A stretch of DNA of 64,000 bases from a virus. Position numbers and translations under genes: made by a program. Every line of letters begins with the position of its first letter. The first letter of the stretch is position 1. Where the stretch lies: the IMG/VR virus record IMGVR_UViG_3300015360_000024, positions 96,001-160,000 of that record. One strand, given 5' to 3'. Below the pieces are notes generated by a model. It was given only the letters and a program-made list of their open reading frames with translations, was not told the DNA's origin and searched no databases. Shown here piece after piece: positions 8,891 through 64,000 of the stretch.

Positions 8891-11206
8891 ATGCCAGGCA
8901 AGCACACCAACAAAGCAAAGCGCTTCAGCAAGCGCGTCAACGAGTCTTCGGCCTGGCTGTTCGCTGGTCCCGGAAACCCCGTGTACATGGGTAACCCAGA
9001 TCCGGTGAGCCAGTTCAACCCAAGCGGCCAGGTGTCGCCAGGTGCGGGCTATATCCCTGACGAGGTCGCCAAGATGCTCGTCAAGGAGAGCGGCCTCAGG
9101 AAGTCCGACACGATCCCCAAGAGGGTCATCGAGAGCTACCTGGAGTCGATGCGGCTATCCAAGGGCCTTGCTGTCGATGTTGCCAGGGTTCTTCGTGACG
9201 TCTACGGCATCACACCGACATTCGACGAATCGTCACTCTACGCCATATCCGGTTCGCTTATTGAGGAGCTGACCGGGGCGATGAACGAGAGCTTCCCGAT
9301 GCCGTTCGCGTTCGATGATGAGCCCAGGATCTTGAACGAGGTCGACCTGGTCGGCTCGTTCATTCAACGCGAGTTCATGGAATCGACGGACGAGAACTAC
9401 GATCTCGTTCTCGGAACCCTGGCGCTGCTCCCTTACCGGGAGTTCTGCGATGTCGTTGACTTCCATGAGTGGGTTGGCGAAGACGCCTTCAACCAGATCG
9501 AAGATCTCGCCATCAATGGTCCAGACGGCATGGCCGAGATGGTGCTCGAAGGCCTCTGCTGGCCGAGTCGCATCAAGCTCATGCCGGAGCATGTCCAGGA
9601 TCTATTCGAGGACGCTGCGGATGACGTCATCAAGGCAGGGACGGCGAAGCTGAAGAGCAGGATGCCGGCGATTCCGCCTGTTCCGAAGGGTGGCCCAGCG
9701 AAGCCTGCTCTTAAGAGCGCTTCCGGTAAGCCAGGGATGAAGATACCAGCGATCAAGGCTAAGCCAACGGTCCCTTCGTTCAAGAAGCAGATGGCCAAAC
9801 ACGGCAAGGATATGGCCAGCGATCCACTTGCTGCCAAGAAGCCTGGCGCTGCCCTCGCGGCACACCGTGAGAAACAGGACAAGGACTGGGATGCCGCGCA
9901 TGCAGCTGCGAAGGCGCGACACGCTGATGAACCCGAGAAGACGGTTCCGAAGGGTAGCCGCCTAAAGAAGGCAGGGACTGCCGCCATCGGCGCGATGAAG
10001 AAGGTCGGCGGCGCCTTCAAGAAGGCCAGCGACTTCCTTCATGCCCCCGGCAAAGCGGTCAGCCACGCAGCGAAGAGCGTCGCTAAGGGCACCGCCAAGG
10101 TTGGCGGTGGACTCGTCACCGGAGCGCTCAAGGCGGTCGGTCACGTTGGCGGTACTCTCGCCAAGGGTGTGGTTGGTGGCTTTACTGGTAAGAGCCACTC
10201 GAATTCTGGTTCGGACCACGACTCCGACGACGGCGACTCGAAACCAGAGAAGAAGAAGGGCCCAGGCGTTCTCGGTCACATCGGCCGGGCTATCGGCAAG
10301 TTTGCTGGTCACGTCAAGAAGGGCTTCAAAGATGCATCTCCTGGCATCGCGCACGTTGCCGGTAGTGGCAAGGAGCCTGAGAAGGCAAAGGAGCCAGAGG
10401 CCGAACCGAAGAAGAAGAAGCGGATGACCACCTCGCAGGTTGGTCAGGAGTCCGTTTATGCGAGCGGATCTCTTATCGGCGAGGTTGAGGCCATGCTTGG
10501 CGGTCAGTCCATCGAGGACGAGACAGAGGAAGAGGAGACAGTTCGTTCACCTGCTGAGGTCGTGGACACGCTGGAAGCTACTTCGGTTGTAGACCAGGCG
10601 GTCTGCGAGGCCCTGTCCGAGATGGACTGGGACGGCGTGGCCAAGATGGCCGGTTTCATGATGCTCGTGCCACAGCGGTTCCTCGGTCTCGTTCAGTCCT
10701 TCAAGGAGGGAACGGACGAGTTCAGGGCTGAGTGGCATGAGCTTGAGGAGAGCGGCTCGAAGCCGAGCTGGATGAACATTGGTTCGTTCGTGACGCTCGC
10801 GAAGCTCTCGCTGGACGAGGGTGTGATCCCGAGGATTGTCTACTTCGCTGGCAAGGCGCTCCAAGCAGCAGACGAGGCCGTGGCCGCACATGTCAACGAG
10901 AGCTATCCGGAGCTTGGTCAGACGGTCTACGGACCGGCAGGAGATCCCAAGGAGGGTCCTCAGCTGGCGAAGTCTTATCTGACCCCTCAGCCGACTGGAA
11001 CGATGACCCCGACCAAGAGTGATTGCACGACGCGGATGTTCTCGGATCCTGCGGACCGCGAGAAGGCACGCAAGGCGAAGCTCTCCGACGTCATGGACGT
11101 TCTCAATGGAATGCGTAGCGCTGCGGCGGCGGCCGGCGTTGCTCCTGAGGGAATGTTCCTGAACCTCTATCGCGACATGCACCGAGAGAAGGTTCGGTAC
11201 AGCTAA
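8891..11206 (+). CDS. 771-aa hypothetical protein with acidic ends and a K/A/G-rich middle; possible internal virion protein
   Basis: Long ORF with SD; no family recognised; many h-x-E-S motifs. Confidence 0.65.
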   Translation: MPGKHTNKAKRFSKRVNESSAWLFAGPGNPVYMGNPDPVSQFNPSGQVSPGAGYIPDEVAKMLVKESGLRKSDTIPKRVIESYLESMRLSKGLAVDVARVLRDVYGITPTFDESSLYAISGSLIEELTGAMNESFPMPFAFDDEPRILNEVDLVGSFIQREFMESTDENYDLVLGTLALLPYREFCDVVDFHEWVGEDAFNQIEDLAINGPDGMAEMVLEGLCWPSRIKLMPEHVQDLFEDAADDVIKAGTAKLKSRMPAIPPVPKGGPAKPALKSASGKPGMKIPAIKAKPTVPSFKKQMAKHGKDMASDPLAAKKPGAALAAHREKQDKDWDAAHAAAKARHADEPEKTVPKGSRLKKAGTAAIGAMKKVGGAFKKASDFLHAPGKAVSHAAKSVAKGTAKVGGGLVTGALKAVGHVGGTLAKGVVGGFTGKSHSNSGSDHDSDDGDSKPEKKKGPGVLGHIGRAIGKFAGHVKKGFKDASPGIAHVAGSGKEPEKAKEPEAEPKKKKRMTTSQVGQESVYASGSLIGEVEAMLGGQSIEDETEEEETVRSPAEVVDTLEATSVVDQAVCEALSEMDWDGVAKMAGFMMLVPQRFLGLVQSFKEGTDEFRAEWHELEESGSKPSWMNIGSFVTLAKLSLDEGVIPRIVYFAGKALQAADEAVAAHVNESYPELGQTVYGPAGDPKEGPQLAKSYLTPQPTGTMTPTKSDCTTRMFSDPADREKARKAKLSDVMDVLNGMRSAAAAAGVAPEGMFLNLYRDMHREKVRYS

Positions 11207-11286
11207 TGGTGATGGATCCGGCCAAGATTGCCGTGGCGGTTTCCAGTGGCCTTAGCATCGTCTGCGCGCTCGATTTATGGATCTGA
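11206..11286 (+). pseudogene. Orphaned original 5' end of the 11815 gene (MVMDPAKIAVAVSSGLSIVCA then LDLWI*)
   Basis: 15/19 aa identical to the N-terminus of ORF 11815; starts by TAATG overlap with the upstream gene. Confidence 0.85.
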
Positions 11287-11874
11287 TACTATGTCCCTTC
11301 AGATGCCATTCAAAAACATCGATGACAAGCGAGCGAATGCTCGTAGGTATTGGGCAGAGAACAAGACTCGTCTGTATGTTGCGCAGAGAGAATACGTAGC
11401 GAAGCGGAATGAGTCAGATCCTGAGTTCAGGAAGCAGACGCTCGATCGTCAGGCGGAATGGGCTCGACGAAATCCAGAAAAGAAAAAGGCCATCCAGGCA
11501 AGGAATGAAGCCAAGAACGGCGAGAGAAACGCAAGAAGCCGTAGAAATGCAAAGCTGAAGCACGATCACGGAATCACCGTGGATGAGTACGAGGCGATTC
11601 TAGAGAATCAGTCTGGTGGATGTGCCATCTGTGGATCTAGGTCAGCCAACAATGGTTCGAGAACCAACCTCTTCGTCGATCACTGCCATGAGACGTCTGC
11701 AGTAAGGGGATTGCTTTGCAATCCGTGCAATCTCGGTCTTGGTAACTTCATGGATAATCCTGAATTACTGATCAAGGCTGCCAACTACGTCGATAAATCA
11801 AGGCGGACGACACCATGATGGATTCAACGAAGATTGCAGCAGCTGTTGCCAGCGGATTGTCGATTGTGTGTGCG
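11269..11874 (+). mobile_element. Endonuclease VII homing-type cassette carrying a recoded replacement 5' end of its target gene
   Basis: Deleting 11269-11874 (606 bp) restores one continuous ORF, ...SGLSIVCA/TCEKYW... Confidence 0.75.
11291..11818 (+). CDS. Recombination endonuclease VII-family (HNH-like) free-standing endonuclease
   Basis: GITVDEYEAILENQSGGCAIC...LFVDHCHETSAVRGLLCNPCNLGLG is the Endonuclease_7 signature; basic helical N-terminus; likely start ATG 11291 (track 11228). Confidence 0.92.
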   Translation: MSLQMPFKNIDDKRANARRYWAENKTRLYVAQREYVAKRNESDPEFRKQTLDRQAEWARRNPEKKKAIQARNEAKNGERNARSRRNAKLKHDHGITVDEYEAILENQSGGCAICGSRSANNGSRTNLFVDHCHETSAVRGLLCNPCNLGLGNFMDNPELLIKAANYVDKSRRTTP

Positions 11875-12231
11875 ACCTGCGAGAAGTACTGGGAAGCAAG
11901 GGACAGGGGAGTCCCTGACGACAGATGTCTCGCGGTAGACGGCTGCGGGTCTCCTATTGCCGGTGACGTGTTCCACGAATATCGCGGGCCGATGACTCAG
12001 TTCGACCAATTCTGCTTTCGTTGTGGAGATCGGGCTACGCATGCGGTGCGCGTGGATAACAGCGTCAGGGTGATCGGCGTCTGTTCGGCTCACGTCGAAA
12101 TGATCAAGACGCTGAAACCTGAAGGCAAACGTGCGCCGAACGTCGTCCTTATCTCCAAGGATGGCGAGAAACAAATCACAGATAAAGACGCCCCGCAGAG
12201 ACGCCAATCTCTCCTCAAGTTGAAGTGGTAA
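11815..12231 (+). CDS. Cys-rich, probably Zn-binding hypothetical protein
   Basis: CATC...C...C...CFRC...CSAH; ATG overlaps the endonuclease stop (ATGA). Confidence 0.75.
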   Translation: MMDSTKIAAAVASGLSIVCATCEKYWEARDRGVPDDRCLAVDGCGSPIAGDVFHEYRGPMTQFDQFCFRCGDRATHAVRVDNSVRVIGVCSAHVEMIKTLKPEGKRAPNVVLISKDGEKQITDKDAPQRRQSLLKLKW

Positions 12232-45244: not shown

Positions 45245-45438
45245 GTCTTGAATTCTTTCCACTGGTAACCGAGGTCTCTGAGAACACGGCCGTTACGGAA
45301 CGCATGCAGGTCTATCGCGCCAAGATTCTTGGCGGGTGGCTCGTGCTAGTAACAAGCCAGGTCGCTGGATATCAGCATGAAAAATTAACGTTTGTGCCCG
45401 ACGCTGATCACACCTGGAATGGAGAATCGCTGCCATGA
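45241..45438 (+). CDS. Small hypothetical protein
   Basis: YRAKILGGWLV...LTFVPDADHTWNG looks like a conserved small bacterial protein type; SD GAGGAG. Confidence 0.6.
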   Translation: MSLEFFPLVTEVSENTAVTERMQVYRAKILGGWLVLVTSQVAGYQHEKLTFVPDADHTWNGESLP

Positions 45439-46349
45439 AGAAGATGTTTTTGATCGCCCTTGTTTGCTTCGTTGCTGGGTGTGAAGACACCGCAACGCCC
45501 AACCTCGTCTCAGTTGCTGAGGCCAGTATGACCACGTGTCAGACGTGTACGAATGTAACGCCGGCCCAGCCAGCAATCCTCGTGCATGGACGCAACGATA
45601 CGTCGGCTCGGTGGAATACCCTGGTAACTAACTGGGCAGCCAAGGGATACACCGAGAACACCAACCTGTTCCGGATCAACATGGCTGCATACTGCACGAG
45701 CAACTCGTTCTGCGCGATGTTGCCCGCCCCTGACGGAACGGGCGCGACGTACGTTAACGAGAGTTACGCCAACTGCCTAAAGCGGTACATCGACGAGAAG
45801 GTGCCATGTGTAACCGACGGCGCCGGTGGTGTTAACTGTCCCGCAGTTGATATCGTAACGCACAGTCAGGGCGGCGTGGTCGCGCGCTACTACACCCGCT
45901 TCCTCGCAGGCACGCGGCAGGTCAACGACCTTGTCGTGATGGCAGCGCCGATCGGCAACGGCATCACGAACTGCACGCTCGCAGGAGCATGTCCGGGCGT
46001 CAATCCAGAGGACTGTCCTGATAGCGCTTTCGCGCGCAAGCTCAACGGCGTTGCACCGCAAGGCGATGGGACAAACGACGAGACCCCGGGCGGACACGCA
46101 ACGGGGCCGATTCACTATTCGGCCACGCTGTCGACAGGAGACAAGACCGTCGTGCCGTGGTGTACGGCCTACTTCATCTCGAACCCGCAAACCCAACAGG
46201 GTGATGATCTGAGCTGCTCGGGTGCAGGCAACTACACGCTCGATCCCGACGCAGATAGCTGCAAGCTATCAAGCGTGATGCACCTGGTAATTCCAACGAA
46301 CACCACTGCGATCAACGATGCGTACTGCAAGTTGAACAATCCAGAGTGA
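45435..46349 (+). CDS. Lipoprotein alpha/beta-hydrolase (lipase class 2-like)
   Basis: Signal peptide with lipobox VAG-C16; ILVHG oxyanion motif; nucleophile elbow VDIVTHSQGG; GDKTVVP Asp and VMHL His candidates; Cys rich. Confidence 0.85.
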   Translation: MKKMFLIALVCFVAGCEDTATPNLVSVAEASMTTCQTCTNVTPAQPAILVHGRNDTSARWNTLVTNWAAKGYTENTNLFRINMAAYCTSNSFCAMLPAPDGTGATYVNESYANCLKRYIDEKVPCVTDGAGGVNCPAVDIVTHSQGGVVARYYTRFLAGTRQVNDLVVMAAPIGNGITNCTLAGACPGVNPEDCPDSAFARKLNGVAPQGDGTNDETPGGHATGPIHYSATLSTGDKTVVPWCTAYFISNPQTQQGDDLSCSGAGNYTLDPDADSCKLSSVMHLVIPTNTTAINDAYCKLNNPE

Positions 46350-46380: not shown

Positions 46381-49044
46381 GTGATTCGAGTAACGATCAA
46401 AAATACAGGCAGCGTGCAGATCGTGCCTGGTGGGCATCCCGCGCTGCCTCCTCCGTTTCACCTGGTCGCATTGTGGCCGGGTGAAATGGAGGAGTCGATC
46501 TGCACTATGGAACAGGTGCAGGCTGAGTGGCCTCATAATTCAGGTTTTAAGGTGCTGGATCTGTTGAGGCAGCTGGTTCAGCAGAGTGTGATTCGAGTTG
46601 ACATTCGTCCATATCAGGAGAATTCTCCGGCGGTTCCTGCAATAGCACGGGCAAGCGAGATCCTGACGCCTCCGCCGCCGGCACCTCCTAAGCCAGAGAC
46701 CGTCGCTCAGGTGTTTAGAATGGCACCGCCCACCGTTGAAGATGACCCAGATGAAGACGAGGACGAGCCCATGAGCAACAAGGACGACCTGCCTGATTTC
46801 GTTGATCCGCTCTATAACGCGCCGACGACCAAGAAGGCTAAACCTGCGCCTGTTGAGGAGGTTGTGCCAGCAAGGCCCGCTCCCGTACAGAGTCCCACTG
46901 CAATCGACATCCCAGACCCAACTGTGGCTGCGTATCGTGGCAAGAAGAAGGAATCCAGGAAGGACGCCTTCGACTCTGCAGTGCAGATGGCGTTCGTGGG
47001 CGCTGGCCAGGGAGGCGGTCGGATTGCCCAGTCGTTCTACGACATGGGCTACAGGCGCGTCTGCGCGGTCAACACGACCCAGCAGGACTTGTCGTCGCTG
47101 ACTATCGCCGACCAGCTTGTTATCGGCAGGAACCGTGGCGGCGCCGGCAAGGACCCGGAACAGGGCAAGCTTGCTGCCAAGGAGTCGTACGAGGAGATCA
47201 TGGACCTCCTTAACCGCTCATGGGGTGAAGGCGTCGAGCAGATGTTCGTCTGCGTCGGAGCTGGTGGCGGAAGCGGTACTGGCAGCTGGCCGGTCCTCGT
47301 CAAGGCGATGCGCGAGTTTGGTGAGAGCACAAACATCGAGAAGCCCATCGAGAAGCACCTCGGCATCATCATGACGATGCCCAAGCGGTCCGAGGGCTCA
47401 CGGGTTCAGCAGAACGCGCTGACGGCACTCAAGCAGGCTGTCGAGCTGGTTGAGGAGAAGAAGATCAGCACGCTTGTCATTGTCGACAACGCGAAGATCC
47501 ACGACCTGTACCCCGGTCTGCCGGTGAAGCAGTTCTGGACGGTGGCCAATCAGAACTTTGCTGCCATCCTGCATACATTCAACATCCTCGCGGCCAAGGA
47601 TTCGCAGTACAACTGCGTTGACGCAGATACTGAAGCATTGACCAAACGCGGCTGGGTCAGAGGGTTTGATCTTGATCCACGAGACGTGCTTCTGACTAAG
47701 AATGCAGAGACCGGCGAACTTGAGTGGCAGGCTCTGACGGATCTCAAGCTCTGGCCAGATTACGAAGGGCCACTCGTAGAGTTGAAAAATAGAACGTTCA
47801 GTGCCGTGACGACGCCAGACCATCGCTGGTTAGTAACCGAGTCCTATGGTGGCGAAGACGTTTGCAAGCTGACCAGCGAGTTGTCGTTGACCGGCCACGA
47901 TCGTATTCATCGGTCTGGCACTTATCGTGGTCCAGATACCTCTATATGGACCGATGATTTCGTTGAGTTGATGGGGTGGTTTTTGACGGATGGAACTTGT
48001 ACCGTTACGCCTGAGTGCGAGGTCAAGAAGCAAAAGAACAGAACGTATGCAGGGCCTCGTGTAAGTGTTCAGATCTATCAAAGTGAGAGGGCTAACCCAG
48101 GGAAGGTTTCCCGTATAGATTCGCTATTACAGCGAATTGGGTGCCAGGCCCACAGGGGATTTTACGACAGAGATCAGCGTGTAACATGGCGACTTGACCG
48201 ATCTACGTCAGAGATTTTGAACGCTCTGTTCCCAGAGAAGGTTCTAACTCCTGAGGTTGCAGCCCAGCTGACAGCGTCACAGGCGAAGAGACTTCTTGAA
48301 TCTATGATGCTTGGAGACGGTAATCTTGCTGGGACTGATGAGCGACAGCAGGTATTTACTTCTGGCTCCGAAGCCGGGATTGAGGCATTTCAAATGCTCT
48401 GCACTTTATGTGGATTTGCCAGCACTTCGCGATGGCGTGATATGTCTGGATACACGCCTGTGTCTGACAAGATGCCAAACATTCCAAAGATGAGCGGCGT
48501 TTGGGCTTCGACCATTCTTCGGAGGCCGACCGTACAGCTTCAGAAGGAACATAAGAGAGAGTTCAACGCAAAACAGGGCGTCTGGTGCCCTGTTGTTCCC
48601 AATACGTACTTCGTGGCACGCCGTGAAGGAACGGTTTACGTTACTGGCAACACGTTCGACCGGGCTGACTATCGGTCGGTGCTCCGCAACGGCATTATGA
48701 TCTTCGGCATGACACGAGTCGAGGAGTGGGTGAACAAGGAAGACGTCTCGGTGGCCATCCGCCAGAACCTCGCCGGGTCACTTCTGGCTGATGGGTTCGA
48801 TCTCAGCAAGGCGAACATGGCTGGCGCAATCGTCGTGGCTCACGACAATGTGCTTGAAGAGGTGCCAATGGAGAACATCGACTACGCCTTCCATAGCCTC
48901 GGACGCGCGCTTGGCAACGATGGGATCACGCTCCACAGCGGCATCTACGAATGGAACAAGCCGGGCATGATGGTTTTCACAATCGTCTCCGGCCTTCAGC
49001 CGCCGCAGTCGAGATTTGACGAGCTGGAGAAGCTCTCAACCTGA
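46381..49044 (+). CDS. Tubulin/FtsZ-superfamily GTPase (TubZ/CetZ-like) with an N-terminal extension and an intein
   Basis: AFVGAGQGGGRIA (T1), AVNTTQQDL, GGAGKDPEQG (T3), GAGGGSGTG (T4 signature), VDNAK, ANQ; the spliced T7 loop reads YN/TFDRAD. Confidence 0.9.
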   Translation: MIRVTIKNTGSVQIVPGGHPALPPPFHLVALWPGEMEESICTMEQVQAEWPHNSGFKVLDLLRQLVQQSVIRVDIRPYQENSPAVPAIARASEILTPPPPAPPKPETVAQVFRMAPPTVEDDPDEDEDEPMSNKDDLPDFVDPLYNAPTTKKAKPAPVEEVVPARPAPVQSPTAIDIPDPTVAAYRGKKKESRKDAFDSAVQMAFVGAGQGGGRIAQSFYDMGYRRVCAVNTTQQDLSSLTIADQLVIGRNRGGAGKDPEQGKLAAKESYEEIMDLLNRSWGEGVEQMFVCVGAGGGSGTGSWPVLVKAMREFGESTNIEKPIEKHLGIIMTMPKRSEGSRVQQNALTALKQAVELVEEKKISTLVIVDNAKIHDLYPGLPVKQFWTVANQNFAAILHTFNILAAKDSQYNCVDADTEALTKRGWVRGFDLDPRDVLLTKNAETGELEWQALTDLKLWPDYEGPLVELKNRTFSAVTTPDHRWLVTESYGGEDVCKLTSELSLTGHDRIHRSGTYRGPDTSIWTDDFVELMGWFLTDGTCTVTPECEVKKQKNRTYAGPRVSVQIYQSERANPGKVSRIDSLLQRIGCQAHRGFYDRDQRVTWRLDRSTSEILNALFPEKVLTPEVAAQLTASQAKRLLESMMLGDGNLAGTDERQQVFTSGSEAGIEAFQMLCTLCGFASTSRWRDMSGYTPVSDKMPNIPKMSGVWASTILRRPTVQLQKEHKREFNAKQGVWCPVVPNTYFVARREGTVYVTGNTFDRADYRSVLRNGIMIFGMTRVEEWVNKEDVSVAIRQNLAGSLLADGFDLSKANMAGAIVVAHDNVLEEVPMENIDYAFHSLGRALGNDGITLHSGIYEWNKPGMMVFTIVSGLQPPQSRFDELEKLST
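47614..48651 (+). mobile_element. Intein (346 aa) with a LAGLIDADG homing endonuclease domain
   Basis: Block A CVDADTEALTKRGW; block B TPDHRW; LMGWFLTDG and LLESMMLGDG; block F/G VWCPVVPNTYFVARREGTVYVTGN followed by Thr at +1. Confidence 0.93.
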
Positions 49045-49048
49045 AGCT

Positions 49049-49276
49049 ATGCCGAAGCCATGGATCGAGAAGCTGTCCGGCCCGGTCAATGGCGTCAATC
49101 TAACCTTCGAGACGCCGCAGAATTTCGTTCCAGGCAGCGTGAAGGTATTCGTGAACGGGATCGTTCTCGTGGCGGACATGGATGACGGTTGGACAGAGCT
49201 TGGGACCAAGAAGGTGGTCATGAAGATCGCGCCGATTCCAGGCGACGTGCTTCAGGCTTACTATCTGACGGTTTAG
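49049..49276 (+). CDS. Small beta-sandwich virion protein, paralog of ORF 49337
   Basis: SGPVNGVNLTF...GSVKVFVNG...DDGWTE...KIAP vs SGTVDGSNTVF...GTTAVFRNG...DDGWLE...KIAP. Confidence 0.7.
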   Translation: MPKPWIEKLSGPVNGVNLTFETPQNFVPGSVKVFVNGIVLVADMDDGWTELGTKKVVMKIAPIPGDVLQAYYLTV

Positions 49277-49336: not shown

Positions 49337-49798
49337 ATGCCGAGTCCAAGATTTGAAGTTCCGTCCGGAACTGTGGATGGTTCCAACACAGTCTTCACTG
49401 TGTCGATGCCGTATTCGGCTGGAACTACTGCCGTTTTCAGAAACGGTTTGCTCCAAGAGAAGAGCCTGGACGATGGCTGGCTTGAGACGAGTCCAAACCT
49501 AGGCATTGTGACGTTAAAGATCGCGCCGAGTGCCTTTGGATACCCAGATGTCATTCAGATCTTCTTCCTGGACCAGTCACCATCTCCTGCTCCGCTTCCA
49601 GAGTCACTGGTCTTCAAGCTCAAGGGCATCATCCGAGCGCAGCCATCCATGAGGGGCTCGCTGGATATCCAGCAACGGATGACTGCTCACATGGAAGCCA
49701 ACAAGCCGCTCGTAGGACATCTGGAGGAACGCAAGGACTTGCGCGGCTCCATCAAGGCGCAGCCGAAAATGAAGGCCTTCATCAAGGAGTGTGTCTAG
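49337..49798 (+). CDS. Small beta-sandwich virion protein with a C-terminal extension
   Basis: Paralog of ORF 49049. Confidence 0.7.
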   Translation: MPSPRFEVPSGTVDGSNTVFTVSMPYSAGTTAVFRNGLLQEKSLDDGWLETSPNLGIVTLKIAPSAFGYPDVIQIFFLDQSPSPAPLPESLVFKLKGIIRAQPSMRGSLDIQQRMTAHMEANKPLVGHLEERKDLRGSIKAQPKMKAFIKECV

Positions 49799-50629
49799 GT
49801 GCCTGCAGTCTCCCAGGAAGAGGCTGTGCGTTTTCGCCTGATGTACGACGCTCGTATGTCGATGAAGCAGATCAGCGAACAAACCGGGCGTGGTCTGGAA
49901 ACCATCTGGCGTCACCTCAGGGCGTCTGGAGCGACTCGAACGCTGGAAGCTGGTTGGGCGATGGCGATGGATGAAGGTCGCGTCCCGGCCCCTCCGGTGA
50001 ACCGTAGACATACATTCGACCAGCGCTTTTTCGAGGTCGTAGACTCCTCGGAGAAGGCGTGGGTTCTCGGGTTGATGTTCGGCGACGGTAACGTTCGTTC
50101 TAGTGGCCGTGTGTTGCTGGCGTGTGGCAAGGACAAGGATGTCGCTCGCAAGGTCGCGGATCTGTTTTCTTACAGCGGTCCGCTGGTCTTTAAGTCGAGC
50201 TGTTGGATGCTGGAGGTTGGCTCTGTTGCGATGGTAAGGGATCTTGCCGCACTTGGTGTGGTTCCAGCTAAGACGTATACGATGAAGTTCCCATCGCTAC
50301 CTGACGGTCTGTTGCCGCATTTCGTGCGCGGCCTCTGGGAGAGCGACGGAACCATGTCGCGCTTGAAGACTGGCGGCCTGTATATGAAATATGTCAGCGC
50401 CAGCAGATGCTTTGTGGTTTCACTGCGCGACTTGCTTATCGACACGGTTAATGTGGTGGCCAAGGTTCAAGACCCGAGAGGACTTGATAGGCGTGGCGTT
50501 CCAGATCGCACATCTGTCATATCGTATGGCTCATCAAGTGCTGAGCGGTTGAGCGAGTGGGTGTACGGTTCATCTACTAAGCAGATGCGTTGTGATAGAA
50601 AATGGCACATTCATCGAGGTGATGTATGA
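49799..50629 (+). CDS. Free-standing LAGLIDADG homing endonuclease with an N-terminal HTH
   Basis: EKAWVLGLMFGDGNV and LPHFVRGLWESDG motifs; MSMKQISEQTGRGLETIWRHL HTH. Confidence 0.9.
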   Translation: MPAVSQEEAVRFRLMYDARMSMKQISEQTGRGLETIWRHLRASGATRTLEAGWAMAMDEGRVPAPPVNRRHTFDQRFFEVVDSSEKAWVLGLMFGDGNVRSSGRVLLACGKDKDVARKVADLFSYSGPLVFKSSCWMLEVGSVAMVRDLAALGVVPAKTYTMKFPSLPDGLLPHFVRGLWESDGTMSRLKTGGLYMKYVSASRCFVVSLRDLLIDTVNVVAKVQDPRGLDRRGVPDRTSVISYGSSSAERLSEWVYGSSTKQMRCDRKWHIHRGDV

Positions 50630-54532: not shown

Positions 54533-56464
54533 ATGCCGCCAATCACGCTGAGCCCGATCTCCAACGCCACCGTAAAGGTGCGATGGAAGGAGCCGTACGC
54601 CTCGGAAGGCCTAAACCGCAAGATGGCGGTCGTGGTTCCGGCTGGTGTGTATCGCGGCCTGAAGCTTGGGGTGAGCGCCAGCAATCTATCTGTCGATTTG
54701 CTCCCTGACGCAGTCGGGGATCACGTCGCCGTTCAGGAGAGTTCCGACGGATTCCAGACGACGTATGTGGATGACACGTCTGGTACGATCACCCTGCCGC
54801 TGACGGGGTTCGCCACCAACGACGTGGTTGTGATCTGCCTGGTTATTGGTTACGCGGTCGGCGCTACAACGACGGCTGAGTTCCGTGGTTATGTGCTGGC
54901 TGACTACGATGCGCTATCGGATGCAGCCAAGAGCGACCTGGTGGTGCTCGGAACGGTTCTTCGTCCAGCAGCCGGCATTATTCCGGCGGTCAACATCACG
55001 CACGATCGTCGGACCTTGCCGTTTCTTCGTCGCACCGATGAAGCCACGCCATGGAACCCGCTGGTTCGTAACGGCGGGTTCGAGCTTGGCGCTACGAATG
55101 CGACCAATGCCGGCGCATCGCCATTCTGGACTACGTACGCCTCGAACGCGAACTTCACGATTCGTCCGGTGACGACCGAGTCTCACTCGGGCGCCAAGAG
55201 CCTGGAGATGACTGCGTCGGGTGCTGGCGCGGTGACGGCTACGATCTGGCAAGACCTGTTCATACCAGTGACGCCTGGCCGCTTCATGATGGGTCGCTTG
55301 TTCAAGAAGGTAATCCAGACAGCGACGCTATCGAGCGGCAGGATTCGGTTCACGTTCGGAGATCAGGACGGCATCAACGACGTCAACGAAGATCTGCTAT
55401 TCGATGTGTCTGCTATTGATGGATCATTCGAAGAGTTCTCTGGGATCATTAAAGTCCCTACGACTGCGCGCGTGCTCAAGGGTGTGTTCATTGTCATCGC
55501 TGGCACATATGCTGGCACCGGCCCGTGTATCCGAATTGACGATGCCCAGGCTTGGATGCAGGTTGATGCAGCCAACTGGATGGATGTCCTCGATGCTCGC
55601 GCTGGCGAGGGTGCGTTCGGAAGGCTGCTCCTTGGTACTGCGAATAGCTTTTCGACTAGTGGCGCGAAGCTGTCGAACCCCGGAAACCTTGTTGAGGTAG
55701 AGCGATCTGACTCAAACCTCCTGGTCCTCCCTCCGGCTATCTCGATTCCGGCTCGCGCTTCAGTGAGCCTCAAGTACACGTTGGTCTTTCAGAGCCTGCC
55801 GCCGGGAAATCCTGGTTATAGAAAGTACGTGTCCCGGGTTGGGCACTTGCTCGAAGTCGTGAACGCATCCTACGACTCGACGACGGATACATGGACGAAG
55901 GATGTCGCTGGCGTCAACGCGCTCAGAAGCGAAGTGGCGGCTAGCGGAGTCCTTGTTTACGAACGTATTTCTGATGTTGCCTGGTTGGATTCCGCCTGGG
56001 CTGCTCAGTACACCGTTGGAACGTCGCCTCTATTCACGCAGTCGATCAGGCACGGCGACCGCCCGCTTCAGCTGGGGTCGAACTGGTTTCAGTACGATAC
56101 GACCTCAGGTGGAGAAGATTTCGTTTTCAGGGATGGTGGCTTCATCCAGATCATGGCCGCGACGACGATTTGGATCGAGCTGCCGTTGATAGTTGGCGAT
56201 AGAGTGAAGTCGTTCACGATTCAGGTCAGCGGAAACGGTGCGTCTGATATCTCTGCGATTAGGTTTCAGCGTGCCGGTCTAGGCAGCACGTTAGCTGAGC
56301 TGACGACGGCGCTTAACAATCCTGGCGCCGGTTGGGCCAGCTATCCGTTCGCGCTGCCAGGTGGCGAGACATTGCTGGCTAATGAATCGTTCGTGATCGA
56401 GTTTGTCATCACTGGGACGATGCAGCTTGCAACTACAACGGTGATCTATGATCACCCAGTCTGA
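54533..56464 (+). CDS. Tail fibre / receptor-binding protein, paralog 1 (CBM4/9-like domain)
   Basis: VRWKEPYASEGLNRK...GVYRGL N-terminus; PLVRNGGFE...IRIDD carbohydrate-binding-like module. Confidence 0.7.
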   Translation: MPPITLSPISNATVKVRWKEPYASEGLNRKMAVVVPAGVYRGLKLGVSASNLSVDLLPDAVGDHVAVQESSDGFQTTYVDDTSGTITLPLTGFATNDVVVICLVIGYAVGATTTAEFRGYVLADYDALSDAAKSDLVVLGTVLRPAAGIIPAVNITHDRRTLPFLRRTDEATPWNPLVRNGGFELGATNATNAGASPFWTTYASNANFTIRPVTTESHSGAKSLEMTASGAGAVTATIWQDLFIPVTPGRFMMGRLFKKVIQTATLSSGRIRFTFGDQDGINDVNEDLLFDVSAIDGSFEEFSGIIKVPTTARVLKGVFIVIAGTYAGTGPCIRIDDAQAWMQVDAANWMDVLDARAGEGAFGRLLLGTANSFSTSGAKLSNPGNLVEVERSDSNLLVLPPAISIPARASVSLKYTLVFQSLPPGNPGYRKYVSRVGHLLEVVNASYDSTTDTWTKDVAGVNALRSEVAASGVLVYERISDVAWLDSAWAAQYTVGTSPLFTQSIRHGDRPLQLGSNWFQYDTTSGGEDFVFRDGGFIQIMAATTIWIELPLIVGDRVKSFTIQVSGNGASDISAIRFQRAGLGSTLAELTTALNNPGAGWASYPFALPGGETLLANESFVIEFVITGTMQLATTTVIYDHPV

Positions 56465-56476
56465 TGGAGATAGAAA

Positions 56477-58978
56477 ATGCCCCCGGTAACCATCTCGGCG
56501 ATTGTTGATCTCTCGAAGGTCAAGATGAAGTGGAAGGAGACGTATGTCTCCGAGGGGCTTAACCGCAAGGTGATCCCTGCGATGCCGAAGGGTATCTACA
56601 GCGGCCTCAGGCTGATTCAGAACATCTCGTCACCACGTCAGGTTGAGGTGTCTGCTGCGCCTGACGTAACGCATGCTGCTGTCCACCAGAGCGCGACTGG
56701 ATACTCCACGACATATCACGACGTTGCTGGTGTTTCTACGATACTTGATCTGAGCAACGCGGCGCTAAACAACCAGGAGACGGTCATCGCGCTGTCGATC
56801 ACCTATGTGATCGGTGCTGATACGACGGCTAGCTGGATTGCCTATCCGATTGCTGATTGGAACGCGCTGACCGACGCGCAGAGGGCTGAGCGGATCGTCC
56901 TTGGGACGGTAAGCGTTCCAGCTCCGGCCACGAACATTACGACAGCGATGATCACTCCGAATCGTCGCACGGCGGCTTGGGAGAGTGAGTCGCCTGGCTC
57001 GGTGCCATGGTCTCCAATCGTTAAGAATCCAAGCTTCGAACATGGTGGTACAGGTTCCAGCGGCTCCGGTCAGTATCTGATCTCTGACTGGCGCAATCGG
57101 GTCGACTTGGACGTCAACGGGCGCTTTGAGTTAGGCGTGGCCACTGTTCGTTCTGGTGCCAAAAGCTTGGCCTTCAACAAGACAATTGTTGGAGCGAGTA
57201 CTGGAAAGATCGAGCAGTACCAAGAGGTTCCCGTTACCCCTGGGCAGCTGGTTCGCGTGACGGGTTGGATTAGGCAGCTCATCGCCCCGACGGGCGGGTC
57301 ATATACATTCAACGTCTACTGGGGCGATCTGGACAGCCTTGCCTCGGGGAGTCTTACCATCACCGCATCGGCGGCTGGCCTTGACGCCGCATTCCGTAAG
57401 GTTGAGTCGACGTTCAAGGTGCCGGCGGGTAAATTCGTTATCAAGACGGTCACGATCGAAGTTGTCGGTGTGACGTCTGCATCAACCGGCGTTGCCGCCG
57501 TCTTCGATGATTTTCAGGTGTTTATTGAGACCGGCTCACCGCTTACGCGGCAGGCAGCTCTCGCAAACAGCTTGCGCCAGCAAATGGTAAGCGCGCTGTT
57601 CTTCGAGGATCCTTCAACATACGCAGCCAATGGACAGCTATCAGCTCTTCTGCGTTACGACAAGTCGACGCCAGTCGGCGAAGGGTCTCTCATCGGTCAG
57701 CGCAAAGACCTCGCAGACAATTCGGCGCAGCCAGCGCTCTCATGGATGGGGCGTATCATCGACCTCGGCAAGTTCATGTTGTTCGGCTCCGCCGAGTCAA
57801 ACCAGCCTCGCATCGAGGGACCGTTTTCATCGAATGAGCCGTTCACCCTAATGTTTGAGACCAGACGCGAAGGACCAGCTGGCAAGGGGCTGCGCTTGTA
57901 CGCTGGGTATCTGTTCGGTGGCTCCACGGAACCTGGCTTCTTCTTGACGGTTAACGCAAAGCATGACGGGACGAACTGGACGAGGGACGTTAACGGCGAA
58001 GGTTCGTCTGGTGTGTATATTGACGCTGACGAGAATCGCGGCAATATTGTATCCAGCAATGGTGCACCGTGTTTGACGACTTATGTTCACAGGGCAGCTG
58101 ATCCTAATACATGGACCACATGGCAGGAGGCCGTTTCCCTTATGGGGCTAAACGATCCAGAGGGAGGATCTGCTCTCCAGACGTCACAGATCTTGATCCC
58201 TCGCTATTTTGATCAGACCAAGCCTGTTATTGTCATTAGCGGTGCGCCGGAGCCTAGAGGCCCTGTTCTACAGGGAGATGGGGATTCTATTCTGGTCGGC
58301 GGAATCGACCACGCTGGAATTTATTTCTACCCGGATTCCAGAGTGGTTCACGAGGACTTCGATGACTCGACGCTCGGCTACTACCTGCGCCAAGACATTG
58401 TTAATGTTGGCAGCACGACCCTCAGTCCAGCTAACAGCAGGGCTACGCTAGTCACAAACGCAGCCAGCGGTAGCATCAGCGTATTTCGTCCAAACGTCGC
58501 CTATCAGAACTGGGGTTCCAATGGCGGGCTGTTCAGGCTAGGTTTCCGCGCCAGGATTGCCATCGGCGGTATCACCAATACCGAGCAGTACATTGGGTAC
58601 TGGTGCCCTGGCCAGGGCAACCCGGACAACAACGCCGCATTGGCTATGGCGTTCAAGATTGTGAACGGTGTCGTGTCAGTGATTGCCGATGGTGGTGCGG
58701 CGACAGCTTCTACCGGAGTCACAGTTGGCGTCGGTCAAATTCGCTGGTTCACCCTGGTCTTCGATCCGACCAACGGAGTGGTCCAGTGGCATATAACGGG
58801 CTCTGGTGGAACCATTGCCAGTGGTATGGTCGGCGGGACTTATGGGACTCTCGCAGCCTCCGCAGAGGCCGGTGATCCAAACTATCCATTTATCGGTGTG
58901 AAGACGACAACTGCGGCAACGTCTTCGATTACGGCTGACTGTTTGACCGCCTGGATGGGCGACAGAGAGGGAATGTAA
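56477..58978 (+). CDS. Tail fibre / receptor-binding protein, paralog 2
   Basis: MKWKETYVSEGLNRK...GIYSGL; PIVKNPSFE...VFDDF; lectin-like C-terminus. Confidence 0.7.
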   Translation: MPPVTISAIVDLSKVKMKWKETYVSEGLNRKVIPAMPKGIYSGLRLIQNISSPRQVEVSAAPDVTHAAVHQSATGYSTTYHDVAGVSTILDLSNAALNNQETVIALSITYVIGADTTASWIAYPIADWNALTDAQRAERIVLGTVSVPAPATNITTAMITPNRRTAAWESESPGSVPWSPIVKNPSFEHGGTGSSGSGQYLISDWRNRVDLDVNGRFELGVATVRSGAKSLAFNKTIVGASTGKIEQYQEVPVTPGQLVRVTGWIRQLIAPTGGSYTFNVYWGDLDSLASGSLTITASAAGLDAAFRKVESTFKVPAGKFVIKTVTIEVVGVTSASTGVAAVFDDFQVFIETGSPLTRQAALANSLRQQMVSALFFEDPSTYAANGQLSALLRYDKSTPVGEGSLIGQRKDLADNSAQPALSWMGRIIDLGKFMLFGSAESNQPRIEGPFSSNEPFTLMFETRREGPAGKGLRLYAGYLFGGSTEPGFFLTVNAKHDGTNWTRDVNGEGSSGVYIDADENRGNIVSSNGAPCLTTYVHRAADPNTWTTWQEAVSLMGLNDPEGGSALQTSQILIPRYFDQTKPVIVISGAPEPRGPVLQGDGDSILVGGIDHAGIYFYPDSRVVHEDFDDSTLGYYLRQDIVNVGSTTLSPANSRATLVTNAASGSISVFRPNVAYQNWGSNGGLFRLGFRARIAIGGITNTEQYIGYWCPGQGNPDNNAALAMAFKIVNGVVSVIADGGAATASTGVTVGVGQIRWFTLVFDPTNGVVQWHITGSGGTIASGMVGGTYGTLAASAEAGDPNYPFIGVKTTTAATSSITADCLTAWMGDREGM

Positions 58979-59254: not shown

Positions 59255-61852
59255 ATGCCCACGGACATCCTCGCGCTGCCATCGAGCAGCCTCAACACGA
59301 AGTGGAAGGAGCCGTATGCCTCGGCGAGCCTCAACCGGAGGTCCGTTGGCATCACTGCGCCGGGAATCTATCGTGGTTTGAGATTGCAGCCGGATCCGTC
59401 CCTGGGCGACAGGACAATTCAGGTCGAGGCTGACCCGGATAAGCTTGATCACGTAGCCGTTTACGAGAACGACAGCGGATTCTCGGTGACGTATCGGGAC
59501 AGCACGTCAGGTGACATCATCCTGTCGCTGGCTGGATACGCCAGCGTTAATGTCGTCGTTTGTATTTTCGTGGACTATCAGACCGGCGTCTCCACGACTG
59601 GCGCCTTTCGGATCTTCACGGAGGCCGAGTTCAGCGCACTGCCTTTGGCTGTCAGTAACGCGTTGGTGATCATTGGGACTGTGACGGTTCCGGTGTCCGG
59701 TGCCATCTCGGCATCGAATATATCGCTCCTGCGTCGCACGCTTGCGTCATCGAATCTGTCACGCGGAACGATCCCCAACGCTCCGTTGGTTCGTAATCCT
59801 GGGTTCGAGTCCGGCGAGACCAATGCGACATACGCCAAATCGAGCTTGTTCTGGGACAAGTCGATGACGGTCGGCACGGGAACATGGAAGACCAGTACGG
59901 CGCAGGTCTCGACGGGCATGAAGTCCATCGAGATGAACGTGACAGCTGGACCTGTTACTGGAGAGATTTCTCAGCAGGTTGGTGTCGAGACGGCGGAGGG
60001 TGAGCTGTTCTTGATTGCCGTTACGATCAAGCAGCTGAAGACGATCTCCTCTGGAAGTTTGGTCTTCTTTTTGGAGTGGTCTGACGTCAACGACGCCTTG
60101 CTGACCACGACAACCATTGGCCTCGACGGTGGCGGAATCGACTCGTCGTTTAGGACGGTGGAGACAATCATTCCGGCACCGGCTGGTGCGTCTTCGTTGC
60201 GTTCTGTTGGTATTCGGGCAACGGGCTTCAGCCCGGCAAGCACTGGGATTTTTGGGTACGTAGATAACGTCGATGTATTCGTTGAGCCGAGAGATCCACG
60301 GTACCCGTACGCATTCGACCAAACGTTCCGTAGAGCGGTGGCCGCGACTGCTGTTTCGCTTCTGGACAGGACGGGGAATTTCGCAAGTCAGATCGCGTCC
60401 CTTCGGTTTGATCCAACAACACCGTCAGGCGAAGGTCGCGCGCTATTTGAGCCAGGCAATCCGGCTAATATTCCACCAGCGCTTGCAGTGCTTGGTAGGC
60501 TGTACAAGCTCGGATCTAGTCTCCTTGGGACTGAGGCGAATGCGCTGAAGCCGCGCGTCAGCGCCGACGTGAGCGTTGCGGTTGGTACCGAGTACACGCT
60601 CATGTGGGAGTCGGTTCGCGACGGGGAGTCTCCTGGTGGCTACACCCAGGCGGTTGCTCGTATCTATGGCGCTCCGGCTGGGCAGTGGACGCTAACAGTG
60701 AATGCTGCGTTCGACGGGACCAACTGGATCAAGGATGTCAACGGTCAAGTTGCGTACAGGACGACATTAGCGCGAGATCAATTCGTCATCTCTACCCAGA
60801 TCGGAGGCACCAACACGTGGCTCGATGCGGCTTGGGTGAAGGTGTCGGAGGCGCTTCCTGGGGCGGTCAATCTGCTGCTTGGTACAGGTTCGAACCAGTT
60901 CGTGTTCACACCGACGCAGCTCACGCACGATGCAGATATCGTCCCAGCAATCACTGGCACGTTTAGCGTTGGTTCTGCGGCCGTACAGCTCGACAAGATG
61001 TGGACGCGGCGCATTGGGCTTGGAGCCGATGGGACTGGCGCGGCTCCAGCGAACACCCCGCTTGGTCGATCACTGTCGATCATCGGAAGTCATGCTCCGT
61101 ATCAGGGCGAGTACATCAGCAAGCGGTTCGGGATATGGGGCCGTAAGGGCCTGCGTTTTGTCGATGACTTCTTCAGCGAGACGACGGTTCCCGATGGATG
61201 GAACTCTGGCTCGATTGGTGCCGGCGCCTCGATTGTTCGTGATGGATCAATACCTCATACCCTCAACGCTGTTCATACCGGAGCTGCGAATGGGACAGCG
61301 TATATCTATACGGCCAACAGCTTTCGTTTGACGGATGGCTTCGTGGCTCGTTGGAGATTGGTATGGAACAACGGCGGCACGATTGGAACTACTGGAGCTG
61401 TTGGGTTTGGTGATCCGATCGGCGGTACGAACGGCATGTCGTTTCATGCCATCGTTGACAACGTAACCTCTGGTGGTCCGTACTTCGGGACTGGATTCCG
61501 TTATGGCGGGACGCTCGATGCGACATTCAAACAGCCGGCGGGCGGAACGTTGATTGATATCGACGCCGTTACTGGATCCGGAGAAGGCGCATTCGGCAGT
61601 AACACGCTAATGCGTTGGTACACTCTCGCCGTTGTTAGTGGTGTGGCCTATTGGGAGGTCTACACGACCGAGCCAGACGGCGAGATCAATGACGACAGCT
61701 TCCTGACCGCGATCGGAAATACTGGGGCCATCACGGTTCCGTCGGGCCTCTATCCGTTTTACGTGAGCGCTCCTGGTGTCAGCGGCCTTGGCGGAACCAC
61801 AATGAAACTGGATTACTTCGAAGTGATCACCGGAGGTCGCGATGGCGGTTAA
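59255..61852 (+). CDS. Tail fibre / receptor-binding protein, paralog 3
   Basis: TKWKEPYASASLNRR...GIYRGL; PLVRNPGFE...YVDNV; distinct C-terminus. Confidence 0.7.
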   Translation: MPTDILALPSSSLNTKWKEPYASASLNRRSVGITAPGIYRGLRLQPDPSLGDRTIQVEADPDKLDHVAVYENDSGFSVTYRDSTSGDIILSLAGYASVNVVVCIFVDYQTGVSTTGAFRIFTEAEFSALPLAVSNALVIIGTVTVPVSGAISASNISLLRRTLASSNLSRGTIPNAPLVRNPGFESGETNATYAKSSLFWDKSMTVGTGTWKTSTAQVSTGMKSIEMNVTAGPVTGEISQQVGVETAEGELFLIAVTIKQLKTISSGSLVFFLEWSDVNDALLTTTTIGLDGGGIDSSFRTVETIIPAPAGASSLRSVGIRATGFSPASTGIFGYVDNVDVFVEPRDPRYPYAFDQTFRRAVAATAVSLLDRTGNFASQIASLRFDPTTPSGEGRALFEPGNPANIPPALAVLGRLYKLGSSLLGTEANALKPRVSADVSVAVGTEYTLMWESVRDGESPGGYTQAVARIYGAPAGQWTLTVNAAFDGTNWIKDVNGQVAYRTTLARDQFVISTQIGGTNTWLDAAWVKVSEALPGAVNLLLGTGSNQFVFTPTQLTHDADIVPAITGTFSVGSAAVQLDKMWTRRIGLGADGTGAAPANTPLGRSLSIIGSHAPYQGEYISKRFGIWGRKGLRFVDDFFSETTVPDGWNSGSIGAGASIVRDGSIPHTLNAVHTGAANGTAYIYTANSFRLTDGFVARWRLVWNNGGTIGTTGAVGFGDPIGGTNGMSFHAIVDNVTSGGPYFGTGFRYGGTLDATFKQPAGGTLIDIDAVTGSGEGAFGSNTLMRWYTLAVVSGVAYWEVYTTEPDGEINDDSFLTAIGNTGAITVPSGLYPFYVSAPGVSGLGGTTMKLDYFEVITGGRDGG

Positions 61853-63902: not shown

Positions 63903-64000
63903 ATGCTTACTTTGAACCTGACCAACACCTCGGGCGTCGCGATCGTTGCCGGCGACGGCGTCCTCCCCAAGATGTTCAGCTGGATGTCGATCGCGATTGC
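63903..64000 (+). CDS. Hypothetical protein, 3' end truncated by the window edge
   Basis: SD GGAG; MLTLNLTNTSGVAIVAGDGVLPKMFSW... Confidence 0.55.
   Translation, partial: MLTLNLTNTSGVAIVAGDGVLPKMFSWMSIAI

Follow-up and report, generated by a model that had tools for sequence, protein, structure and literature searches.

A phage tubulin gene interrupted by a predicted intein

We examined a 64,000-nucleotide stretch of viral DNA (hereafter the window; positions 96,001 to 160,000 of IMG/VR record IMGVR_UViG_3300015360_000024, a 193,958-bp record with an estimated completeness of 91%), which contains a gene for a tubulin/FtsZ-fold GTPase that is interrupted by a predicted intein. The precursor gene occupies window positions 46381..49044 on the + strand, as do all features located below by window coordinates, and encodes 887 amino acids (aa) from a GTG start codon in a frame that runs without interruption. 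It comprises, after an N-terminal region described below, an N-extein GTPase domain (aa 201-411; 46981..47613) with the T1 to T6 loops, the core helix H7 and, as its last residue, the Asn of the T7 loop; a 346-aa intein (precursor aa 412-757; 47614..48651) that begins with Cys1 and ends in Thr-Gly-Asn, followed by Thr at position +1; and a C-extein (48652..49044) with the remainder of the T7 loop including its two Asp residues, helix H8, the C-terminal tubulin domain and the stop codon. Public gene calls begin the gene at M36 or M43 (852 and 845 aa; window 46381-46509). Homologues that start with M-I-R-V, together with the conservation of the N-terminal residues among homologues, support the GTG at 46381 as the start. 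An assembly artefact was rejected, given that a second source assembled the same protein and that eight more alleles are known.

The N-extein matches the Pfam Tubulin family (PF00091) at aa 204-377 with 58.7 bits against a cutoff of 33, and it is also matched to FtsZ, RepX and TubZ in PDB and profile searches. The T1 motif GQGGGR and the tubulin signature GGGSGTG are both present and are invariant in 58 homologues. Over the C-extein, TubZ-like_C reaches 21.1 bits at aa 758-873, under its cutoff of 26; the same Pfam domain is annotated in many proteins of the family. Searched by itself against the PDB, the C-extein has no significant match, and only the whole-family profile covers it. A Foldseek search with an AlphaFold2 (AF2) model returned TubZ-Bt, CetZ2, FtsZ and RepX at E values of 1e-20 to 1e-22, with TubZ-Bt and CetZ2 at the top (~1e-22). 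Taken together, the sequence matches and the modelled fold confirm the predicted product of this open reading frame (ORF) as a tubulin/FtsZ-fold GTPase.

By its profile and fold scores, however, the family is distinct from FtsZ, TubZ and PhuZ proper. FtsZ is the best sequence-profile match, shares the fold and can be aligned at the T7 Asn and both Asp residues, whereas the phage tubulin scores 99.5 bits against a TIGR00065 cutoff of 295.2, ends at its C-terminal domain without the C-terminal tail or anchor peptide, and has an N-terminal extension and one extra T7 residue. TubZ and RepX (2XKA, 4EI7), c-st TubZ (3V3T), CetZ2 (4B45) and PhuZ (phiKZ gp39) have the tubulin fold in common with it at 18-22% identity. 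The C-terminal domain is TubZ-like, whereas PhuZ is barely detectable (hhalign probability 2.7%). No close relative of the tubulin was found in deposited phage genomes.

Presence, absence and boundaries of the insert

Searches with the N-extein returned many homologues of 541-543 aa, 91-93% identical overall, that are without the insert, and the intein-free alleles P0002-P0004 are continuous across the predicted junction. At the nucleotide level, the L004 locus (~84% identity) is collinear with the window and shows two clean gaps in total, one at window 47613-48647, which corresponds to the intein, and one at an adjoining free-standing LAGLIDADG gene. The empty site of L001 matches the window flanks at 56 of 60 nucleotides (nt). 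Because excision of the insert restores an uninterrupted, conserved host protein, and because intein-free alleles exist, the insert behaves as an intein should, and these comparisons confirm it as a predicted LAGLIDADG intein with exact boundaries.

The interpretation of the insert as a functional domain of the tubulin was rejected since the same element occurs in unrelated proteins. A tblastn search of deposited phages matched it only to segments nested in genes for DNA polymerase, the large terminase, the portal, primase and metallophosphoesterase; primase and metallophosphoesterase are the hosts of the TOPRIM and recombination directionality factor (RDF) inteins of mycobacteriophages (PMC5050341). 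In hhalign, a profile of 119 homologues of the intein aligns at 92% probability (E 5.7e-7) with inteins in other tubulin alleles that Pfam does recognise, and block B and both LAGLIDADG motifs are in register. A PDB sequence search with the intein alone gave no match.

Position within the T7 loop

A family profile built from the 58 intein-free homologues matches FtsZ of M. jannaschii (PDB 1FSZ/1W5E) over its full length (E 2.7e-22), with the T1 to T7 loops aligned. In this alignment the junction falls on the N-x-D-x-x-D stretch of FtsZ, which has one residue more in the phage family. The intein is located directly after the conserved T7 Asn, and the two catalytic Asp residues follow 3 and 6 residues further on, so that the T7 loop of the spliced product would read N-T-F-D-x-x-D. 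In an AF2 model of an intein-free allele (mean predicted local distance difference test score, pLDDT, of 81.9), H7 comprises residues 382-404 and H8 residues 415-422, and the loop between them (405-414) holds the N411|T412 junction. Profile alignment and model thus agree in confirming the predicted placement of the junction in the H7-H8 (T7) loop. An earlier reading of the window (the original prediction) had proposed the tubulin/FtsZ-family GTPase, the 346-aa LAGLIDADG intein at 47614-48651 and its position in the T7 catalytic loop, and had called for a search for intein-free alleles; all of these proposals are borne out by the matches, empty sites and alignments above.

The T7 loop of FtsZ and tubulin reaches into the pocket for guanosine triphosphate (GTP) of the next subunit, and the two Asp residues beyond the junction would be those that a subunit inserts into the pocket of its neighbour. 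Since T7 enters this pocket, an insert of 39 kDa at this position is expected to keep the longitudinal interface blocked for as long as it is present. It had also been proposed that the filament protein works only after splicing. That the precursor could not use its T7 face is plausible on these grounds, as far as the alignment and model allow us to infer it.

Conserved residues and mechanistic features of the intein

Residue conservation was assessed in 119 full-length intein homologues with 40-78% identity. Cys1 and the terminal Asn G:7 (Asn346) are invariant (119/119), as are all three named residues of the block B motif T-x-x-H-x-W (47812..47829; Thr B:7, His B:10 and Trp B:12, the first two being Thr67 and His70 in intein numbering) and the Cys at block F position 4 (48586..48588). 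Thr G:5 is found in 118 and Gly G:6 in 116 of the homologues, and the +1 residue is Thr in 107 and Ser in 12. Both LAGLIDADG motifs (47968..48000 and 48292..48327) align to those of canonical inteins, and their catalytic Asp residues, Asp126 and Asp235 of the intein, are each present in all 119. On this pattern of conservation the intein appears capable of splicing and homing.

Trp B:12, Cys F:4 and Thr G:5 make up a full W-C-T triplet, here with Thr or Ser at +1. This triplet marks class 3 inteins (PMC2807308, PMC5050341), which are defined by the absence of a nucleophile at position 1, although 3 of 37 W-C-T inteins retained Ser1 or Cys1 as of 2010 (PMC2807308). The DnaB intein of mycobacteriophage Bethlehem, the class 3 prototype (Tori et al. 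2010, PMC2807308), has in common with the window intein the W-C-T triplet and Thr or Ser at +1, whereas the window intein differs from it by a standard Cys1 nucleophile.

The RDF/metallophosphoesterase and TOPRIM inteins of mycobacteriophage cluster A1 (Kelley et al. 2016, PMC5050341) are 24-25% identical to the window intein (E 4e-9 to 9e-7) and are likewise phage-borne, with a LAGLIDADG endonuclease and an insertion beside an invariant active-site residue; the RDF intein also has a penultimate Gly. In contrast to these, the window intein resides in a cytoskeletal GTPase and not in a nucleic-acid enzyme, and it has in addition Trp B:12, Cys F:4 and Thr G:5. Inteins of phage family-A DNA polymerases from metagenomes, inserted at an N|(T/S)-P-x-Q-G site, agree with the window intein in their conserved residues and in their Asn(-1)/Thr(+1) flanks, but their host gene and insertion site are different, and the T7 tubulin inteins form a clade of their own.

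Residue -1 is Asn in 117 of the 119 intein homologues regardless of the host, which may be DNA polymerase A, Pol III alpha, tubulin (T2 or T7) or one of several unknowns. This near-constant Asn(-1) may be needed either for the chemistry of splicing or for recognition as a homing site.

Inteins in four loops of one tubulin family

The tubulin belongs to a large family that, at E <=1e-30, has 253 representatives among 1.84 billion cluster representatives; 8 of its unbiased top 150 representatives carry inteins. Eight other metagenomic tubulin alleles have the same intein at the same T7 site, giving nine proteins with an intein after the conserved T7 Asn. Within the family, inteins are also found in the T1 loop, after G-Q-G-G (2 proteins), in the T2 loop, between the Asn and Thr of the N-T-T motif (4 proteins), and in the T4 loop, within the G-G-G / S-G-T-G signature (7 proteins). 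The T2 inteins form a separate branch of the lineage that they share with the T7 inteins. One metagenome protein of the same broad family, P0244 (1212 aa), has two inteins, a canonical one in T1 and a relative of the window intein in T2.

Inteins are known mostly from proteins of replication and repair and from a few metabolic enzymes. We found no report of a tubulin or FtsZ intein in the open-access literature searched, including the main intein and jumbo-phage surveys. Judged from that literature, a cytoskeletal polymer as an intein host appears to be new. The allele is already spread over at least eight tubulin genes besides this one, but all of these are unannotated metagenome proteins. 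What is new here is the host family, the four-site pattern and an intein lineage that is missed by curated profiles, whereas neither the type of element nor its mechanism is out of the ordinary. The occupation of four GTP-contacting loops in a single family is a natural illustration that inteins survive where the host cannot change its sequence.

The case also exposes a blind spot of annotation. Where source names are given, these tubulin-family proteins are called plain FtsZ, because the intein lineage is not matched by Pfam or NCBIfam intein models, and the recorded lengths and domain maps of such precursors are misleading.

Origin and mobility of the intein

The composition of the intein is foreign to its host gene, with a G+C content at third codon positions (GC3) of 0.514 as compared with 0.721 in the extein. 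Its nearest non-tubulin relatives, at 50-55% identity over all 346 residues, are in phage family-A DNA polymerases (PF00476 proteins). A quick maximum likelihood tree unites the nine T7 inteins in one clade (support 1.0), with a clade from DNA polymerases as its sister group (support 0.75). Extein identity does not correlate with intein identity in these nine alleles (rho 0.09): in one pair the exteins are 98% and the inteins 78% identical, and in another the inteins are 85% and the exteins 68% identical. Intein-free alleles with a 100% identical GTPase domain exist, and compared with alleles that lack the intein the exteins show 98-100% conservation. The intein is present in a single copy, no second one being found in this genome. 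Foreign composition, uncoupled divergence, ancestry in a polymerase pool and GTPase domains that are identical in alleles lacking the intein together point to a selfish mobile element that was probably acquired recently and may still be mobile.

We therefore favor, with considerable confidence, the interpretation that an intact phage tubulin has been invaded by a mobile LAGLIDADG intein, which would be rapidly spliced out and act as a selfish element and not as a switch. According to this interpretation, the gene would encode an intact, probably polymerising GTPase of a large family found only in uncultured phages. The intein would most likely excise itself fast and constitutively to leave a 541-aa tubulin with a layout identical to that of the intein-free alleles, and its endonuclease would spread it into empty alleles during co-infection. 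The T7 site would be favored because its codons are too constrained to be mutated away, not as a switch of the phage. The founder intein may have come from a related pool that resides mostly in family-A DNA polymerases of phages and is invariably inserted with Asn at -1 and Thr or Ser at +1. The splicing and homing events themselves, a precursor unable to polymerise or capping filaments, and the role of the tubulin in the cell are parts that we infer.

Conditional splicing is the chief alternative for the intein, and we regard it as unlikely. The intein would serve as a post-translational timer or as a stress or redox sensor, with the precursor withholding or capping filaments until a cue arrives. 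The expected block of the longitudinal interface by a 39-kDa T7 insert would suit such a role, as would two reactive Cys residues (Cys1 and Cys F:4 are both invariant) and the recurrence of the T7 allele in nine tubulin genes. Splicing that depends on conditions is also on record for inteins elsewhere, among them the mycobacterial DnaB intein, which is reported to act as an oxidative stress sensor (PMC6195587). Against this, alleles with identical GTPase domains manage without the intein, so that splicing is improbable as a needed regulatory gate; composition and phylogeny indicate a recent, mobile, polymerase-derived intein; and these residues show no less conservation where the intein has a DNA polymerase as its host. 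The presence of other inteins in T1, T2 and T4 is what conservation of the sites would predict and does not point to one regulatory design. The suggestion in the original prediction that splicing gates filament assembly is opposed by the intein-free alleles, the foreign composition, the uncoupled divergence and the pool of DNA-polymerase inteins alike. A bolder version, to which we give equally little credence, takes the T1, T2, T4 and T7 inteins together as a cytoskeletal switch: the T7 precursor would cap filament ends, and splicing would set when the filaments can treadmill, with Cys1 and Cys F:4 tuning it to redox state or time. If true, the timing of T7 splicing would amount to a tubulin switched post-translationally in nature. 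As a practical use, the T7 allele may provide a natural tubulin in which a self-removing domain would keep the polymerising face blocked as long as it stays in place, and which could aid studies of capping and treadmilling.

Several points weigh against the selfish, rapidly spliced intein that we favor. The penultimate (G:6) residue is Gly and not His. Curated Pfam (Intein_splicing/Hint) and NCBIfam models of intein N and C termini gave no match to the intein at E values up to 1-10. In the AF2 model of the precursor, the splicing domain (aa 407-482 and 697-758) has pLDDT values below 50, too low to show a HINT fold. The combination of Cys1 with a W-C-T triplet fits class 1 or class 3, and we have not filed the intein as class 3, since Cys1 is present in all 119 homologues. 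The lack of correlation between intein and extein identities was computed from non-independent pairs. Finally, the neighbours of the tubulin gene are mostly unannotated. The first three of these points would also be expected of a decayed insert that no longer splices, leaving an inactivated tubulin gene, an incipient pseudogene or mere cleavage products, but the uninterrupted frame, the intact catalytic positions conserved across the 119 homologues, the strongly conserved exteins and the efficient splicing of a penultimate-Gly phage intein (RDF; PMC5050341) make this very improbable.

N-terminal region and genomic context of the tubulin

The ~190-aa non-tubulin N-terminal arm that had been described ahead of the GTPase domain is not a plain arm. 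It consists of a folded domain (aa 1-100; 46381..46680; AF2 pLDDT ~85-96), which is conserved in A1 and A3 and found only in closer relatives, and a disordered, Pro-rich and acidic linker (aa 105-172; 46693..46896; pLDDT <50) with a D-P-L-Y motif whose residues (D142, P143, L144 and Y145) are nearly invariant. Short linker motifs are kept even by the short members of the family, from which the N-terminal domain is missing. This domain has no Pfam match, its look-alikes in a protein atlas score 0.76-0.77, which is under a useful level, and no homology to any virion protein was detected. A stand-alone paralogue of it (~95 aa; conditional E 5e-12 with a hidden Markov model of the domain) is encoded at 63903..64000 and continues to ~64190, ~190 nt past the window end.

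The tubulin gene is on the same strand as, and downstream of, the portal, protease, capsid, sheath and tape-measure genes of a distantly T4-like morphogenesis module, which has a portal, a prohead protease, a gp23-type capsid protein, an adaptor, a sheath and a tape measure. The best matches of the capsid protein among deposited phages are ~35% identical. The genome encodes a head and tail of the T4 type, along with many genes of translation. In relatives the position of the tubulin gene is conserved: a variable slot precedes it, and two paralogous small beta-domain proteins and then several large proteins are encoded downstream. A scan of the + strand around the gene for promoters and terminators found nothing, which at most suggests co-transcription. 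Of the location within a virion gene cluster proposed for the tubulin, the placement on the late, virion-gene strand stands, but the large proteins downstream are without a confirmed virion identity: they have no Pfam, PDB or deposited-phage match and only weak PHROG matches, to tail sheath phrog_165 on a 1145-aa protein and to phrog_19162 on three others.

Our best guess for the role of the tubulin is a cytomotive filament that would organise phage replication or assembly late in infection. A filament that is tethered to the virion or moves capsids, with the N-terminal domain as a virion anchor, was put forward in the original prediction and is in our view doubtful. It would agree with the conserved synteny with the large downstream proteins, with the position on the strand of the structural genes and with the stand-alone paralogue of the N-terminal domain at the end of that gene block. 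The N-terminal domain, however, has no homology to virion proteins, the downstream proteins have at best weak PHROG matches, and shorter family members have no such domain. The conserved position among genes mostly of unknown function is the sole basis of this idea. The protein is not PhuZ, and a search for chimallin, the nuclear shell protein, came back empty for the record, which is 91% complete; the power of that search is low, and its empty answer is weak evidence.

A partition motor of the TubZ type, serving a plasmid-like prophage instead of a lytic-cycle cytoskeleton, is likewise improbable. The best structural and sequence matches include TubZ-Bt, RepX and c-st TubZ, and many proteins of the family are annotated with TubZ-like_C, but FtsZ matches equally well. 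No TubR-type gene adjoins the tubulin gene here or in the L001, L002 and L004 loci, and no repeat array is seen beside it, although a dedicated repeat search was not run; its flanks are instead the variable hydrolase slot and the small beta-domain proteins. The conserved place of the gene within a late morphogenesis strand, in a genome with head and tail genes of the T4 type and many genes of translation, also argues against such a motor.

Upstream of the tubulin gene, the variable slot (45435-46349) holds a lipase-like alpha/beta hydrolase, where L001 has a Peptidase_C92 protein and L004 is unaligned across the stretch. Directly 3' of the tubulin gene are tandem paralogues of a small beta-rich domain (49049-49276 and 49337-49798); the first is missed when ORFs of at least 60 aa with an ATG start are called, but L001, L004 and the P0123 contig each retain it as a gene of 75 aa. 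Farther downstream, three large paralogues (54533-56464, 56477-58978 and 59255-61852) have a common N-terminal region (phrog_19162, function unknown) and divergent C-terminal halves. Diverging C-terminal halves are frequent in receptor-binding proteins. None of the three has a Pfam match, and the product of 59255-61852 is also without a PDB sequence match.

Between the 153-aa and 1145-aa genes, with overlapping start and stop codons, is the free-standing LAGLIDADG homing endonuclease gene (49799..50629; LAGLIDADG_3, phrog_4645). It corresponds to a clean gap in L004, is absent from L001 and L002, and is present beside the intein-bearing allele P0123. We rejected the possibility that it is a copy of the intein endonuclease, the similarity between the two being only marginal (E 0.007); it is a second, independent mobile insertion outside the tubulin gene. 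A weak match to the intein found before the window is likewise not an intein copy and belongs to a Cys-rich HNH-type ORF at genome positions 94888-95718, between the large terminase and portal genes, with which an endonuclease VII cassette at 11206-12231 may be compared. This HNH-type ORF is likely to be another homing endonuclease, in a genome rich in such elements.

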